From the IMG/VR virus record IMGVR_UViG_2541047595_000012: DNA of 11,447 bases; one strand, written 5' to 3'. The translations under genes and the position numbers were made by a program. This document shows positions 1-11,313 of this stretch, piece after piece; the stretch's first letter is position 1, and each line of letters starts with the position of its first letter. The stretch is from a virus (lineage: Duplodnaviria > Heunggongvirae > Uroviricota > Caudoviricetes). The notes under the pieces are model-generated. The model was not told the DNA's origin. It was given only the letters and a program-made list of their open reading frames with translations, and did no database searches.

Positions 1-385
1 TGATATCGCCCTGGTTTATTTTGCGAAGAAGCGTCGATGTTCTGAAATTGCCAGCACCCACGTTGTAAACGAATGAGTAAAGAGCGCCGCGCATTGTTTC
101 CGGTATATCGACTTTGATGTACGGGTTAATTTGTCTGGCGACCGTGGCAAGGTCTTTATTCAGGAGGGCTTTGCATTCTGCTTTGGTATACGTTTTACCG
201 AGCATGATGTCTTTTCCTGTATGCCCGTGACATACAGTCCATACACCAACAATATCTTTGTATGGTATGTAGCTGACACCTTCCAGACCATCGTTACCAC
301 TTGGGCCAGTGATTAACACTGATGCTATAGCAATTGCTCCGCCACCAATAGCAGCAGCAACGGCTTTTCGTAATGATGGAGGCAT
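1..385 (-). CDS. rrrD: SAR endolysin (phage 21 R-type lysozyme), partial; N-terminus at 385, C-terminus beyond window start
   Basis: Hand translation of the minus strand from the ATG at 385-383 gives [59 protein letters not shown]... This has a Gly/Ala-rich signal-anchor-release segment followed by the T4-lysozyme-like catalytic spacing E-x8-D-x5-T. The start overlaps the holin stop in a TAATG arrangement. The six-frame track missed it because it runs off the window. Confidence 0.85.
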
Positions 386-600
386 TATTCACCTCTCGCA
401 GCCTTGCGCTTATCTTCTTTAATCTTGAAATAAAGGTTTGTCAGGTACGTCAGCAGGCCAAATACCAGGCTACCCAGCACACCTATTGCTGCCCACTGTG
501 AGGGCGTGACTTTATCGAGCAGCTGTAAAAACCAGTAACCGGCACTACCTGCTGAGGTGCCATAGGCGACACCCGTTGTTAACTTATCCATGGATTTCAT
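385..600 (-). CDS. essD: class II holin (S21-type pinholin) with dual-start motif
   Basis: 71-aa [31 protein letters not shown]...[14 protein letters not shown] with two transmembrane segments and a charged C-terminus. The N-terminal M-K-S-M arrangement matches the antiholin/holin dual start of phage 21 S. It sits immediately upstream of the endolysin on the same strand. Confidence 0.85.
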
Positions 601-740
601 AACCCCACCTCGCAGACAAAGCGGGTGTAAATTAAGGGGATATTACGTATCGCAATAAAGGCAGAAACGTAACAGATTCGGAGTCAGTGAATAACTCAGG
701 TATTGGGTTATCAGCTAATATCGAGACTCAAAAAATGGAA

Positions 741-762
741 AAACCCGCTCGACGGCGGGTTT
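741..762. terminator. perfect 8-bp stem / 6-nt loop hairpin (AAACCCGC-TCGACG-GCGGGTTT) flanked by A-run and T-run; candidate bidirectional terminator between the holin and the porin promoter region
   Basis: Read directly from the sequence. On the minus strand the stem is followed by a U-rich tract (TTCCATTTTTTGAG), so it could act as a late-operon terminator just upstream of the holin. Confidence 0.4.
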
Positions 763-1188
763 AAGCTGTGTGACGAAGTAACCACTCTTAACAGCATAAC
801 CAATTTTTTACGTACGTAAACTACTAAATGATATTTGTGAGAATGCCACCGAGTGTTCAAAACACCACCACAAATACATAAGAAAACTTCAACAAATAAT
901 CAGTTAATAATTTCCGATGTTATTTTTAGTTTGTTTAAATTAAGCTAAAGAATTATAGAGCACTTATAAATAAGTGCCATTAATATAAATTAGCTAATAG
1001 ATTTATTTTTGTTCAGACAAGAGCCATGAATAGGATTAGATAGAAAAGGTTCAGATAAAAATAGAGATCTACTTCACAAATTAAATGAGAAACTAAAACT
1101 TACATCTTGAAATAATCACATTGATTAGATGAATATTTATCGCGCAGTGACATCATTTTTTAATAATAGTTCAAAAAAAGGGCGTACA

Positions 1189-2271
1189 ATGAAAAAATTA
1201 ACAGTGGCAATTTCTGCTGTAGCTGCATCAGTACTGATGGCGATGTCTGCTCAGGCAGCTGAAATTTATAATAAAGACAGTAACAAGCTGGATCTATACG
1301 GGAAAGTTAATGCCAAGCACTACTTCTCCTCTAATGATGCAGATGATGGTGATACTACTTATGCCCGTCTTGGCTTCAAAGGTGAAACCCAAATCAACGA
1401 TCAACTGACTGGTTTCGGTCAGTGGGAATATGAATTCAAAGGCAACCGTGCTGAATCTCAAGGTTCTTCCAAAGACAAAACCCGTCTTGCATTTGCAGGC
1501 CTGAAATTTGGTGATTACGGCTCCATCGATTACGGCCGTAACTACGGTGTAGCATACGACATCGGTGCGTGGACTGACGTTCTGCCAGAATTCGGTGGTG
1601 ATACCTGGACCCAAACAGATGTGTTCATGACTGGTCGCACTACTGGTGTTGCAACTTATCGTAACAACGACTTCTTTGGTCTGGTCGATGGCCTGAACTT
1701 TGCTGCTCAGTATCAGGGTAAAAATGACCGCACTGACGTAACTGAAGCCAATGGTGATGGTTTCGGTTTCTCCACTACTTATGAGTATGAAGGATTCGGC
1801 GTGGGTGCAACCTATGCTAAATCAGATCGCACTGACGGTCAGGTCGCCTATGGTAAGAGCAAATTCAATGCCTCCGGCAAAAATGCGGAAGTATGGGCTG
1901 CAGGCCTGAAATATGATGCGAACAATATCTATCTGGCTACCACATATTCTGAAACTCAGAATATGACCGTTTTTGGTAATAACCATATTGCAAACAAAGC
2001 ACAAAACTTTGAAGCAGTAGCACAATATCAGTTTGACTTCGGTCTGCGCCCATCTGTTGCTTACCTTCAGTCAAAAGGTAAAGACCTTGGTGTTCATGGT
2101 GACCGAGACTTAGTCAAGTATGTCGATGTCGGTGCTACTTACTACTTTAATAAAAACATGTCTACTTTTGTTGATTACAAAATCAACTTAATTGACGATA
2201 GTAAGTTTACCAAAACAGCTGGTATTGATACCGACGACATCGTCGCTGTAGGTCTGGTTTATCAGTTCTAA
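1189..2271 (+). CDS. nmpC: outer-membrane general porin, OmpC/OmpF/PhoE family (prophage-encoded NmpC/Lc type)
   Basis: ORF 1129..2271; the likely true start is the ATG at 1189 ([23 protein letters not shown]|AEIYNKD...), giving a classic signal peptide with AQA cleavage site. Porin hallmarks are present: the internal PEFGGD loop-3 motif and a C-terminal ...VAVGLVYQF ending in Phe. Its position between Q and the lysis genes, on the opposite strand, matches the DLP12 nmpC / PA-2 Lc arrangement. Confidence 0.9.
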
Positions 2272-2288
2272 TCTGACTTACGAAAAAG

Positions 2289-2322
2289 ATATGTTGCGGG
2301 AGGCTTTGCCTCCGCAACATAT
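2289..2322. terminator. long inverted repeat (ATATGTTGCGGGAGG-CTTTG-CCTCCGCAACATAT) just 3' of the porin; reads as a rho-independent terminator on the minus strand (followed by CTTTTTCG)
   Basis: Stem of about 14 bp with one bulged G, seen directly. An A-run precedes it on the plus strand, which is a U-run on the minus strand. Candidate tR'-like terminator for Q-dependent late transcription, or a bidirectional porin terminator. Confidence 0.5.
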
Positions 2323-2409
2323 AAGTGGAGCCCTCAAGCCACTTCCTTTAGAAGCACTACCTTGCTTCTTACTATATAAACCTTCTGTTATATATTACCC
2401 TTTATTTTG

Positions 2410-2436
2410 GGGGCGTTTCCACGCCCCATTTTTAAT
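2410..2436 (+). terminator. rho-independent terminator (GGGGCGT-TTCC-ACGCCCC followed by ATTTTTAAT)
   Basis: 7-bp GC-rich stem, 4-nt loop and a T-run on the plus strand, downstream of the porin stop. Confidence 0.55.
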
Positions 2437-2459
2437 AACTTTTAGTAAACAATTGCATA

Positions 2460-2843
2460 TCAATTAGAATTATTAGCAACGATATCCATATCTAACCGGA
2501 TATCTAATGCCATTAACATCCCTTCAATTATGCCCTCAGCCTTCTGTAACCTTTTCCCGATATAACCATCCGAGCAGCAATGCTTACTTGCCAGTGACAT
2601 GAATGTCATACCACATACATAATAATCTACTAATAAATCGTGTAAATCGCTGTTGTTCTTTTTCAGACGGGCCATGCACCCGCAAATGATCATCGCGTCA
2701 TCGTCACAACATTGCGGGCGAGATTTTACTTTTGAAGGAATTAATCCCTTAAAACCGGCGGCAATGGACGACCAGGTCACATCTTCATGATTATTAGCCG
2801 CCCACGCACCCCAACGCTCAAGAACCATCTGAATATCACGCAT
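2460..2843 (-). CDS. quuD: late-gene antiterminator Q (phage 82 / DLP12 QuuD type)
   Basis: The track ORF 2460..2858 starts on a TTG; the first ATG is at 2843, giving 127 aa [24 protein letters not shown]...[16 protein letters not shown]...[12 protein letters not shown]... The Cys clusters are consistent with a zinc-binding Q protein. It occupies the canonical position between the nin region and the lysis genes. Confidence 0.8.
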
Positions 2844-2928
2844 CAACTTACTCCACAAAAATCAGACCAGAACGCCAATTACAAGCAAAAATCAACAAAA
2901 CAGTATTAGTTGATTGTTATCTCTGACT

Positions 2929-7760: not shown

Positions 7761-7870
7761 ATGCCCTCCATAGTAAACACGAATAAAAAATACAATATGT
7801 ACTTTAAGAATACAAGTAAAAATACACATTGTGCATGGATGGTTCCAGTACAAAGCGTAATAATAAGAAC
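7761..7870. promoter_or_regulatory. OR region with divergent pR (towards cro) and pRM (towards cI) and TACA/TGTA-armed operator repeats
   Basis: Minus-strand pR candidate: -35 TTGTAT (plus 7810-7815) and -10 TATTTT (plus 7787-7792), with the operator-like 19-mer AAAGTACATATTGTATTTT (plus 7787-7805) across the spacer and -10. AATACA[A/C] repeats occur at 7789, 7809 and 7821. pRM -10 candidate TAATAA at 7858-7863 lies immediately before the cI ATG, suggesting a leaderless cI mRNA. Confidence 0.55.
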
Positions 7871-8530
7871 ATGAAAATGAAATGGTATGAACTGGCTAGA
7901 TCCAGAATGAAAGAGCTCGGCATAACTCAAGAGAAGTTAGCCGAAGAGCTAGGTATGACGCAGGGTGGGATTGGACACTGGTTGCGCGGATCTCGTCATC
8001 CATCTCTTAGTGATATTGGAGTGGTGTTTAAATACCTTGGTATTGATAACATATCATTCAACCACGACGGGACATTTTCACCTGTTGGCGAATACTCATC
8101 GGCCCCAGTTAAAAAACAATATGAGTACCCTGTTTTTTCTCATGTTCAGGCTGGGATGTTCTCTCCAGAACTCAGAACCTTTACCAAAGGCGATGCGGAG
8201 AGATTGGTAAGCACAACCAAAAAAGCCAGTGACTCTGCATTCTGGCTTGAGGTTGAAGGTAACTCAATGACCGCACCAACAGGTTCCAAGCCCAGCTTTC
8301 CTGACGGGATGTTAATTCTGGTTGACCCTGAGCAGGCTGTTGAGCCAGGCGATTTCTGTATAGCCAGACTTGGTGGTGATGAGTTTACCTTCAAGAAACT
8401 GATCAGGGATAGCGGTCAGGTGTTTCTACAGCCACTAAACCCACAATACCCAATGATCCCATGCAATGAGAGTTGTTCCGTTGTGGGGAAAGTTATCGCT
8501 AGTCAGTGGCCTGAAGAGACGTTTGGGTGA
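7871..8530 (+). CDS. cI: CI prophage repressor (HTH N-terminal domain plus LexA/S24-type autocleavage C-terminal domain)
   Basis: The C-terminal part (...[25 protein letters not shown]...[29 protein letters not shown]...[32 protein letters not shown]) matches the lambda CI C-terminal domain from memory, including the Ser/Lys dyad context. The N-terminal HTH domain is non-lambda. The start is uncertain: ATGs at 7835, 7871 and 7877 are all in frame, with no Shine-Dalgarno, consistent with a leaderless message; 7871 is chosen. Confidence 0.8.
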
Positions 8531-8629
8531 TGTGACTGCATGTAATTTATCAAAAGCGCACATACCCTATGCTAAACAACTTACTGATTAATTTACTGAA
8601 AATCATTTATTAAAAAATAAGGATTGCCA

Positions 8630-9481
8630 ATGAATTTTTCGGAAGAAAAAAATAAAGATTTCCCCAAAAAAGTACAAACTTCGCTATTTGAAGTAGATTG
8701 TAATGACGGATGCTCATTTGTAGATGTCTTGAAGACATGCGAAAATTTCAAACAAAACTATGACTTTGAGTACTCTAACGACACTCGGGCAAGGATAAAA
8801 AGTCTAATAGTTAACGATGACCAAATCTTTGCTGGGATAACACTCTATGAGCCCAAAGCTTTGGTCCCGGTAACTCCAAAAGATGGAGACCATAACGATT
8901 TGCAGGATGTAGATAATTATGATAAATGCCATATATTCTTGCTTGCAACAGAAAGCAATATTCTAACAATTTTTCAACTATCAGGAACTCATCCTTTATC
9001 TAAGTTAAAAAAAATATTTAGCCTCATGAATATCAATGTGAATATTTCTGAGAAACTCAACAAAGATGCACTTGGCAAGATAATAAAAGATGGAATACGC
9101 TCCATCAGCCTAAGTATTGAAACAACAAAAGAAGATCTAGAAGAGGCAAAAGCAACATCATTAGGTATCACTGGAAAAGCTAAAGAAGCTTTGTCAAGAT
9201 TATTTGAGAAAGAGCAAGATGATGACAACTCTTTCTATGGGCTTCTGACTCTTGACAAGAGACATAACCCAAAACTCTTAAATATTGCGAACAAAAATCC
9301 AAGCCTGATCATTGATGAATTATCGGAAGAGTTCTTCATCACAACATCAAAAGGCCAAGCGATCAAAAGCTCTGAAATCAAAACAAAAAAAGATTATTAC
9401 ACAAGAAAGTATGGCTCTACCACCATAAAAGCGGAACACGCTAAGGAAATTCTTGAGCACTTCAAGGATTTCATACTATAA
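8630..9481 (+). CDS. hypothetical soluble protein (283 aa), first gene of an AT-rich cassette in the rexA position; not recognisable as lambda RexA
   Basis: The ATG at 8630 is preceded by AAGGA (the track ORF begins on a TTG at 8624). The protein is Lys/Asp/Glu-rich with no transmembrane segment, no Walker motif and no obvious nuclease or protease signature. Codon usage and base composition are visibly AT-rich compared with the flanking phage genes. Confidence 0.7.
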   Translation: MNFSEEKNKDFPKKVQTSLFEVDCNDGCSFVDVLKTCENFKQNYDFEYSNDTRARIKSLIVNDDQIFAGITLYEPKALVPVTPKDGDHNDLQDVDNYDKCHIFLLATESNILTIFQLSGTHPLSKLKKIFSLMNINVNISEKLNKDALGKIIKDGIRSISLSIETTKEDLEEAKATSLGITGKAKEALSRLFEKEQDDDNSFYGLLTLDKRHNPKLLNIANKNPSLIIDELSEEFFITTSKGQAIKSSEIKTKKDYYTRKYGSTTIKAEHAKEILEHFKDFIL

Positions 9482-9518
9482 TGGAGGGTCGTACGTATAA
9501 CCAAAGGGGGAGGTGTGA

Positions 9519-10010
9519 ATGAGAGGTAAAGATTGGAGTTATATTTTTTCCATAATCTTTTTTATCTGCCTTTCTCTTGTATTAACTTATTATTTACATG
9601 ATAAGGTTAGATATAACAAAGAGTTGCTTGGACTTGTGGCAAATATATTTTCAATATTAACAGGGTTTCTGTTACTTGTTATAACCACAAGTGGAGACGT
9701 AGCATCGTTTACAGAAGGTAAATCAAGATCAGAAAAGTATGCAACTAAGAGGAAATTCGAAATTCGGTTTTCTCGTTACATGATGCTTTTTTACCTCTAT
9801 CTTACAGTCTTGTGCTTAATATTCTTCTACTACATGCTGCTGCCACCAGGAGACACCAGTAAAATCTTAGCAAGCAAGCCGCCTGTGACCAACCTGAGTC
9901 TGGCACTTGAGTTTATTATATGCTGGCTAAGCATAATTTCATTTGGATGCTCTTTTTTCATACCAATAAAGCTGAAACAGATTTATAACGAAAAACTCAA
10001 GCAACAATAA
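9519..10010 (+). CDS. hypothetical integral membrane protein (163 aa, about four transmembrane helices), second gene of the cassette in the rexB position
   Basis: The ATG at 9519 is preceded by a strong GGGGGAGG Shine-Dalgarno. Four hydrophobic stretches are visible (about aa 8-26, 36-57, 87-108 and 126-150). The size and topology resemble RexB-type small membrane effectors, but the sequence is not recognisably RexB. Confidence 0.75.
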   Translation: MRGKDWSYIFSIIFFICLSLVLTYYLHDKVRYNKELLGLVANIFSILTGFLLLVITTSGDVASFTEGKSRSEKYATKRKFEIRFSRYMMLFYLYLTVLCLIFFYYMLLPPGDTSKILASKPPVTNLSLALEFIICWLSIISFGCSFFIPIKLKQIYNEKLKQQ

Positions 10011-10442: not shown

Positions 10443-10715
10443 ATGTCCAGAAAAACAGAATTTAAAGGCACCGCAGCTTCTCGCCGTAGAGCTCGTCGCG
10501 CAAATCTGCAAAGTCAGGAGGCGATCAGCTCCGACAAGCTACACAGGCCAACCCCTTCACGAGTGGTCTTGCAATGCAAGCGCAAACCAGCAATGAGAGC
10601 AGAAGTGATAACTCTGACAACGTTGACCAGAAAATATGAAGGTTCAACTTGTCTTCCGAACGTAGCTCTTTACGCGGCAGGCTACCGGAAATCAAAACAA
10701 CTGACGGCGAGATGA
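10443..10715 (+). CDS. N: N-type antitermination protein (P22-like N with arginine-rich RNA-binding motif)
   Basis: The ATG at 10443 is preceded by GGGAGGAA, giving MSRKTEFKGTAASRRRARRANLQSQEA... with an arginine-rich motif near the N-terminus. The C-terminus ...VALYAAGYRKSKQLTAR resembles the P22 gene 24 (N) product as I recall it. The track ORF start at 10371 is upstream of the Shine-Dalgarno and is unlikely. Confidence 0.7.
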   Translation: MSRKTEFKGTAASRRRARRANLQSQEAISSDKLHRPTPSRVVLQCKRKPAMRAEVITLTTLTRKYEGSTCLPNVALYAAGYRKSKQLTAR

Positions 10716-10731
10716 TAAATTCATTTGCTAA

Positions 10732-11313
10732 TTACTTGTTTTTGCCATGCTTATCCTGAGCGATAAGTTCATCCATAAGGCTGTCTGCCTTCCCGGCAAA
10801 CCGAATGTAGCACTCATGTCTATAGCTTTCAGGAATAACAAAACGGTCGGTATCAGGATATCCAACAGCAGGAGGCCTTCGAACGAGGAGTCCTTTTTTG
10901 AGCAATGAAATTGATTCATGAACTCCCTTTTCCGTTTGTAGCTGGTTATTAGCGGCTACAGCGAATGCCAAATACGCTCTTTCTCCAAGAGTTAACGAAT
11001 CAAACAAATCTTGCACATATTTTTCTTCTTTAGATTTGCGCTTCTGAGCAGCGGATACCTCAATTCTTTCAGTCACAGCGTGATAAGCGGAATTAACAAC
11101 GCCGTTAAGCACATAGCTAACGCAAAACAACAGGATGTAATACATCCAGTAATGAGGAAGGATTTCTGGATTATGCAGGTTTATCCATTCTTTTACGCTT
11201 ACCGGCATAACAATAATCAATATGATCAGGATGATTAGCATATGAATCAACTGTTTAAGTGTCATTCCTTGCAGGAAAAAATGCATTAGTTCCTGCCACC
11301 ATGAGTTGTTCAT
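10732..11313 (-). CDS. sieB: superinfection exclusion protein B (SieB-like), membrane-anchored
   Basis: 193-aa ORF with an N-terminal hydrophobic segment (LIHMLIILIILIIVMPV... and YWMYYILLFCVSYVL), adjacent to N. Its size and location match lambda/P22 SieB; recognition is from memory and only moderately secure. Confidence 0.6.
   Translation of the reverse strand: MNNSWWQELMHFFLQGMTLKQLIHMLIILIILIIVMPVSVKEWINLHNPEILPHYWMYYILLFCVSYVLNGVVNSAYHAVTERIEVSAAQKRKSKEEKYVQDLFDSLTLGERAYLAFAVAANNQLQTEKGVHESISLLKKGLLVRRPPAVGYPDTDRFVIPESYRHECYIRFAGKADSLMDELIAQDKHGKNK

Follow-up and report, generated by a model that had tools for sequence, protein, structure and literature searches.

The nmpC/lc porin cassette of a DLP12/PA-2-type lambdoid prophage probably lies between the late antiterminator gene Q and its late promoter

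We have re-analysed positions 601 to 2436 of an 11,447-nt DNA sequence (hereafter, the window; IMG/VR virus record IMGVR_UViG_2541047595_000012, Caudoviricetes), where a porin gene (1189-2271, plus strand; 360 aa) stands between the late antiterminator gene Q and the holin gene of a lambdoid prophage, both of which are encoded on the minus strand. It is near certain that this segment is the nmpC/lc porin cassette of a DLP12/PA-2-type prophage. A first-pass annotation of the same sequence had concluded that late transcription must cross the porin gene antisense in order to reach the holin. Our analysis points to a different arrangement: the late promoter, PR′, probably lies at 820-786 on the minus strand, that is, already beyond the porin in the late direction, with its terminator at 762-731 and the porin between Q and PR′. 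The basis for this placement is homology to the PR′ of Shiga toxin (Stx) phages together with the statistics of gene orientation in related loci. Taken as one, the account that joins the identity of the cassette, a late promoter beyond the porin and insulation of the porin from late transcription is in our judgement likely to be correct. As a discovery, the cassette is of small importance, its DNA being already present in most sequenced E. coli, and the literature already covers the porin and its regulation, its antisense place between Q and the lysis genes, and the IpeX 3′ untranslated region (3′-UTR). The contribution of the re-analysis is to correct the mechanism.

The candidate PR′ (778-820, minus strand) is made of a -35 hexamer TTTACG (820-815), a 16-nt spacer, a -10 hexamer TATGCT (798-793) and an invariant TAAGAGTGGTTAC (790-778), with the start of transcription predicted at 787/786. 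It also contains a conserved GTnCGnA motif (815-809) and TAAGAGTGG (790-782). An intrinsic terminator, the candidate tR′, follows on the same strand (731-762; stem 762-741, U-run 740-731), for which the terminator scan gave an 8-bp stem with five G-C pairs and then TTCCATTTTT, and which is kept beside the promoter element in related loci. When the minus strand of 725-820 was used as a BLAST query, 363 phage records were matched. Among them, the Stx phages (H-19B, 933W-type and Sakai Sp5) showed 76-78% identity over 82 nt overlapping the 3′ end of Q, with E values from 6e-9 to 3e-7 in a 2.3-Gb collection. The PR′ start of Sakai Sp5 has been located by RNA sequencing, 258 nt upstream of the 3′ end of tR′ (PMC7547250). 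Counting 258 nt back from the terminator at 876-903 of the Sakai locus (L250) leads to a start at 645-647, which is 6-7 nt past a TATCAT -10 element accompanied by a TTTACG -35 element, and inside the TAAGAG of TAAGAGTGGTTAC. The Sakai RNA upstream of the 876-903 terminator contains UGUAACGAA, which we take to match the rpoS-pairing seed of DsrA, and this match was used to back the assignment of tR′. The StxS RNA is described as sharing the rpoS-pairing seed of DsrA (PMC7547250).

The PR′-tR′ region of the Stx phages (H-19B, 933W, Sakai Sp5 and Sp15), which gives the StxS RNA, is like that of the window in its -35, spacer motif, -10, TAAGAGTGGTTAC and first hairpin. The surroundings are different. 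In the Stx phages the element starts about 10 nt before the Q stop codon and PR′ is followed by sense-oriented cargo (stx, tRNA genes), whereas in the window the element is 1.67 kb away from Q and the cargo is upstream of it and antisense. Also, in the Stx phages a second terminator ends the transcript after 258 nt, whereas only the first hairpin stands before the holin in the window.

How general is this arrangement? We fetched 240 loci around three Q lineages; all the loci obtained with the window's own Q that reach far enough past Q carry the porin and hence do not allow Q and the cassette to be told apart, and two diverged Q queries were needed. The element was found downstream of Q, and on the Q strand, in 154 of the 158 loci of two Q types, at a distance that varies from 0 to about 2900 nt: 75 of 77 QuuD-type loci have it about 1670 nt past Q, and 79 of 81 SfIV-type loci have it between 0 and ~1800 nt past Q, or 2565 nt in SfIV. 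In a profile of 77 distinct copies anchored on the motif, T at -8, A at -7 and T at -3 reached frequencies of 0.95, 1.00 and 0.99, a conserved TAnnnT that fits a -10 element, and the spacer of these copies contains the GTnCGnA motif. Gene orientation switches at the element. Between Q and the element, 97% of the nucleotides within open reading frames (ORFs) are antisense to Q (125,487 of 128,943; 151 of 158 ORFs), and downstream of it 93% are sense (127,458 of 137,088; 318 of 350 ORFs). In phage PhiR55_1, an antisense ORF stands ahead of the element, after which come a methylase gene on the sense strand and the holin. Four loci (L026 and L041-43) cease to be homologous to the window at 739, right after the terminator, as expected if Q, cargo, promoter and terminator travel as one unit. 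On the holin side, 601-730 (minus strand) is read as the leader of the late (lysis) operon, from the terminator to the holin start, and 606-793 aligns at 75% with the DNA ahead of an unrelated holin in phage SfIV; the terminator scan found no further terminator-like sites in 601-730. Moreover, the DLP12 block composed of Q, late promoter and lysis genes functions in the viable phage 434B.

The promoter scan itself returned 3 promoter-like sites, compared with 7.4 expected from shuffled sequences. One site, at 980-952 on the minus strand (ATGGCA, 17-nt spacer, TATAAT), at first resembled a lambda-style PR′ located about 200 nt upstream of the 762-741 terminator stem. It was rejected as a candidate in view of this shortfall against the shuffles, and as being without a homologue next to any Q and placed in DNA of 25% GC.

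With PR′ at 820-786, the cognate promoter of Q would not be adjacent to Q but 1.67 kb away from it. RNA polymerase leaving PR′ would meet the terminator at 762-731 about 25 nt further on and then a 130-nt leader into the holin; a terminator is present at this position, between the candidate promoter and the late genes. In the prophage state, transcription from PR′ would yield no more than a short RNA, roughly 50 nt long. Upon induction, Q would load at PR′ and RNA polymerase would pass the terminator into the lysis genes, and the porin cassette, lodged in the gap between Q and PR′, would remain insulated from late transcription. The earlier proposal that induction generates antisense RNA across the porin is therefore not borne out, given that the PR′ homologue is downstream of the porin and the orientation switch is found there: the cassette is probably upstream of the late promoter, and no promoter-driven antisense porin RNA is expected on induction. 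Both hairpins that late RNA was said to pass do exist, and only the one at 741-762 belongs to the late leader; the other, at 2289-2322, is stem 1 of IpeX. By analogy with lambda, antisense porin RNA could come from N-modified transcription from PR running past Q, and the 2322-2289 hairpin, followed by CUUUUU on the minus strand, could stop polymerase that is unmodified.

Several observations weigh against a late promoter at 820-786. First, the assignment was made by homology and orientation from loci that are related and hence not independent. Second, the homologue of the 762-741 hairpin in Sakai is a putative terminator, being placed near +24 to +52 in an RNA mapped as far as +258. Third, phages of the IdasGreatGrand type, whose Q is 86% identical, lack the element (0 of 64 loci with enough sequence); they need another late promoter, apparently adjacent to Q, and Q specificity would consequently not be uniform in the clade. 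Fourth, published work on DLP12 puts a Q-responsive promoter, essDp, at a sigma-E-type site that corresponds here to ~1140 on the minus strand. This Sakai Sp5 hairpin (669-697 of L250) is strong and terminator-like, with seven Ts; either it is read through, or an RNA of ~50 nt escaped detection. As for the IdasGreatGrand Q, its main divergence is at residues 77-98, where the window Q and the Stx-phage Q have IGKRL instead of VGRML, a common feature that is only suggestive of a closer kinship between these two. A full-text literature search for the K-12 coordinates of the predicted start gave unrelated matches only.

The porin gene is intact. Inspection of the ORF (1129/1189-2271, plus strand) revealed neither frameshift nor insertion, and the first-pass annotation was right in describing a complete OmpC-family porin with its own signal peptide, on the strand opposite to the late operon and between Q and the holin. 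The 360-aa protein matches the 16-strand barrel domain of the Pfam family Porin_1 over positions 1-337 of 337 (E 1.9e-151) and passes the NCBIfam cut-off for the OmpC subfamily (521 bits vs 484); its closest solved structures are OmpC and OmpK36, matched over residues 24-360 with E about 1e-137. A PEFGG constriction-loop motif and a C-terminal YQF can be read directly in the translation. The 23-residue signal peptide (1189-1257) is the same as the sig_peptide annotated for PA-2 Lc (J02580). Protein identity is 91% with Lc of phage PA-2 and also 91% with K-12 NmpC over the 346 codons ahead of the IS5 insertion, and the differences, together with two short indels, are confined to a small number of short blocks, of which those at residues 181-232 and 335-345 are the largest. 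Public records (e.g. gp61 of phage 2G7b) begin the coding sequence at the ATG at 1129, giving 380 aa and 20 residues before the signal peptide. This upstream start is probably a misannotation, since the position of the signal peptide indicates that the real start is at 1189.

The same cassette is well known from two relatives. In the K-12 prophage DLP12 (qsr′), rusA, ylcG, quuD, nmpC (antisense), essD and rrrD have the same order and orientation as in the window, and DNA identity is 90-96% over window positions 1-2900, except for ~30 nt beside the IS5 insertion site. K-12 differs in that its nmpC is broken by IS5 after codon 346, whereas the window copy is intact, and in having a holin leader shorter by 17 bp (window 654-670 is absent). 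The lc locus of PA-2 (protein 2, J02580), the classic lysogenic-conversion porin, shares with the window an intact porin and flanks that reach the lysis genes in one direction and the 3′ end of Q in the other, and differs as an allelic variant in a few short blocks of the protein.

Downstream of the porin stop codon, the 3′-UTR (2272-2436, plus strand; 165 nt) corresponds to the small-RNA locus IpeX. It is about 95% identical to the nmpC-quuD spacer of K-12 and it folds with a minimum free energy of -51.6 kcal/mol (z = -6.5) into five hairpins, at 2289-2322 (with a stem of 15-16 bp), 2323-2344, 2350-2369, 2373-2394 and 2410-2427, the last of which is a terminator followed by a U-run. This plus-strand intrinsic terminator, detected by the terminator scan and not listed in the first-pass annotation, is the end of the porin transcript. 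The two marks of IpeX, homology to the nmpC 3′-UTR and an intrinsic terminator at the end, are therefore both present, and the window allele carries a handful of substitutions with respect to K-12, its function being putative. Rfam has no model of IpeX, and scanning the entire window against Rfam with an E threshold of 1 gave two chance-level matches elsewhere and none in 601-2460, 2272-2436 included. In one related locus (L046), an insertion of ~700 bp separates the porin stop codon from the first IpeX hairpin (at window 2283-2292). IpeX was reportedly first described in the Journal of Bacteriology in 2006. It is listed among the repressors of OmpC (PMC3333887), and it is described as made from the porin transcript.

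The porin unit is self-contained on the plus strand, with a host-type promoter within ~200 bp of the ATG and an mRNA that ends at 2410-2427, and its structured 3′-UTR, IpeX, would lower OmpC and OmpF. By analogy with the relatives, a lysogen would swap part of its porin set, with NmpC/Lc coming in and OmpC going down, and such a swap would alter phage and colicin receptors as well as permeability. The view of the cassette as a lysogenic-conversion arrangement holds, as it is established for this gene family (PA-2 Lc, NmpC), including the change in porin make-up through the co-transcribed IpeX; literature backing for a lysogen that makes the porin and has reduced OmpC concerns the close relatives PA-2 and K-12 only.

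What controls the porin? The region upstream of the gene, 601-1188, had been presented as a 530-bp stretch of unusually AT-rich DNA. It is certainly AT-rich, with a GC content of 0.245-0.265 over 801-1200 against 0.44-0.49 on both flanks, but it measures 588 bp and consists of distinct parts, namely the holin leader (601-730), the terminator/promoter element of the minus strand (731-820) and AT-rich porin regulatory DNA (821-1188, plus strand; GC 0.245-0.345). This last part has a mean identity of 93% with K-12 DLP12, PA-2 and phage Chlobot; in one locus (L021), homology to the window stops at 1123, within the porin promoter region. The K-12 promoter PnmpC lies at most 199 bp from the ATG, since a deletion from -199 to -1 removes it, and its start was mapped by 5′ rapid amplification of cDNA ends (5′ RACE); CRP is reported to activate it at two sites, and OmpR, IHF and MprA to repress it (PMC11677980). 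The counterpart of PnmpC in the window would be at roughly 990-1188. Mapping of the porin promoter, which the first-pass annotation had proposed as a check, has thus largely been done already, because it was published on near-identical DNA. A CRP-like site, AGAGATCTACTTCACA (1063-1078, plus strand), has two mismatches to TGTGA-N6-TCACA; alone it is not above chance, and its position is that of a CRP site annotated for PA-2 lc (J02580 1363-1383). The distal CRP site of this 1986 record (J02580 1067-1087) is found at window 766-786, AGTGGTTACTTCGTCACACAG on the minus strand. Positions 786-766 are the conserved first ~21 transcribed nt of the candidate late promoter, and this distal site more probably belongs to a Q-loading or pause region than to the control of the porin.

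The low GC content of the porin upstream DNA (25-27%) has also suggested that the porin might be a quiescent, H-NS-silenced xenogeneic gene, from which a lysogen would make little protein in ordinary conditions. The 16.5-fold increase in K-12 nmpC mRNA from 23°C to 37°C (PMC8544407) is typical of H-NS-controlled genes and compatible with this explanation, though no proof of it, and a 1998 paper, as it appears in a reference list, terms nmpC 'quiescent' in E. coli B. Nevertheless, we consider silencing unlikely. PnmpC, mapped by 5′ RACE, is active in K-12 at 37°C, enough to drive expression of the IS5 transposase (PMC11677980), and IpeX has been detected as an expressed RNA. A literature search for H-NS data at the nmpC locus found nothing specific.

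A late promoter in the textbook position, directly downstream of Q (2460-2290, minus strand), would have Q-modified polymerase running antisense through IpeX, the porin and both hairpins to the holin. Weak hexamers do occur there (TGGAAA at 2421-2416 and TAATAT at 2397-2392, with an 18-nt spacer), the 2322-2289 hairpin is followed by CUUUUU on the minus strand, and such a layout exists in relatives: the phages of the IdasGreatGrand type have only a Q-adjacent promoter and terminator candidate, followed by an antisense lipocalin gene. In these phages (L006 2803-3327; also L088-L167) the lipocalin gene, which is Blc-like, takes the place of the porin past Q, and the TAAGAGTGGTTAC element is absent. 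However, the hexamers of the window are under the threshold of the scan, and the likeness of its Q-adjacent DNA to that of IdasGreatGrand, with a score of 18 against a shuffle mean of 16.8, was equalled or exceeded by 166 of 500 shuffles. ATATAACAG, which the window and IdasGreatGrand have equally far from the Q stop codon, was considered as a sign of a Q-adjacent PR′ and discarded, the alignment being not above chance. Furthermore, the region is already accounted for as the conserved, highly structured 3′-UTR of IpeX, and a Q-adjacent promoter would leave unexplained both the conserved Stx-type PR′ homologue just ahead of the holin and the orientation switch. A promoter with a Q-loading region was thus not found immediately downstream of Q, where the hexamers are sub-threshold, and the only homologue of a mapped PR′ is 1.67 kb away; the window has the components of a Q-dependent late cassette, though no longer side by side. 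We therefore regard a Q-adjacent late promoter as improbable.

Even less credible, in our view, is a late promoter equated with essDp, the sigma-E-type promoter published for DLP12; essDp is oriented against the porin gene, overlaps its 5′-UTR, and would start at ~1140 with a ~540-nt leader into the holin. A 2015 paper in Microbiology is said to deal with RpoE and essDp. The literature on the control of the DLP12 lysis genes cites Q, RpoE and Hha (PMC7918800), and a GAACT-N16-TCACT motif is present at about 1172-1145 on the minus strand. The reporter fragment extended from -121 to +650, and the ~1140 start was derived from this stated span and from the published primer, which maps to window 1261-1242; the reverse primer of the fragment had no match within 3 mismatches and can be placed by eye near 475-496 with small indels. 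This explanation is difficult to sustain, as the reporter fragment contains the 820-731 element too, so that the Q response cannot separate the two sites, the essDp site is without homology to any mapped PR′, RNA starting at 1140 must still pass the 762-741 terminator while Q needs a loading site near the start, and the site that a genomic SELEX (systematic evolution of ligands by exponential enrichment) study gives in the insH-essD spacer is for the RpoS holoenzyme rather than for RpoE.

Coming back to a PR′ at 820-786, we lean, by a narrow measure, towards a broader reading whose parts are proposed jointly. In this branch of the Q21/Q933 family, Q and the late promoter would routinely be parted by a cargo slot of 0.5-2.9 kb, whose genes, this porin among them, nearly always run against Q, are expressed in the lysogen and are shielded from late transcription; the true late promoter of DLP12 would be a sigma-70, Stx-like PR′ located ~185 nt upstream of essD and not the sigma-E essDp; and a ~50-nt RNA would be made constitutively from PR′ in most E. 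coli strains. If this is true, the late promoter of DLP12-type prophages should be re-annotated, and the gap between Q and PR′ becomes a place to seek lysogen-expressed cargo, defence genes included. In this gap, related phages were observed to carry antisense cargo with candidate defence genes, namely a KAP NTPase (PADLOC PDC-S20, E 1.5e-176), TIR-TM (E 1.8e-57), PDC-S42, a NYN nuclease and a SDH-type protease. The loci of slot cargo antisense to Q are L200:2893-4227, L227:2907-3734, L168:3570-4520, L195:2876-3739 and L218:3068-4063, and several clusters of slot cargo are without any annotation.

The rest of the window is that of a lambdoid prophage with the early-right and late genes on the minus strand. 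With coordinates decreasing, N is followed by a two-gene cassette, cI, cro, cII, O, P, ren, ninB, a methylase gene, rusA, ylcG and Q, and beyond Q come the porin on the plus strand, the S21-type holin and the start of the endolysin gene. Q (2460-2843, minus strand) is a late antiterminator of the QuuD type, of the Q21/Q933 family (PF06530, E 6.7e-54), with 96% identity to K-12 QuuD, 76% to the Q of Sakai Sp5 and a distant match to the Q21 structures 6P18 and 6JNX. The holin gene (385-600, minus strand; PF04971 'Bacteriophage P21 holin S', E 2e-35) has dual starts at Met1 and Met4, and the 434B record annotates an S71 antiholin and S68 holin pair. The endolysin gene, of the R21/RrrD type (1-385, minus strand; PF00959 Phage_lysozyme, E 2.7e-32), is represented by its 5′ part and runs off the window; the record of phage 2G7b, which is identical, names it lysozyme RrrD. 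A tRNA scan found none.

This region is widely distributed. E. coli NCTC86 and phage 2G7b both carry the stretch 601-2460 with 100% identity, and this stretch was matched in 43 phage records and in 3340 of 5426 complete E. coli genomes, 2465 of which cover at least 80% of the segment. The gene order is equal in 2G7b, K-12 DLP12, 434B (which took up a DLP12 segment), PA-2 and many sequenced temperate coliphages.

Two further observations concern the early side of the window. Between cI (7868-8530) and N (10443-10715), in the position of rexA/rexB, two low-GC ORFs are encoded on the plus strand (8624-10010), one of 285 aa and the other of 163 aa, the latter hydrophobic by eye. They had no match in Pfam or PADLOC, and the 285-aa protein matches only phrog_23561 (of unknown function); the pair may be an exclusion pair expressed in the lysogen. 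Beside N, on the minus strand, a homologue of the superinfection-exclusion protein SieB is encoded at 10732-11313 (PF14163, E 4.9e-22).

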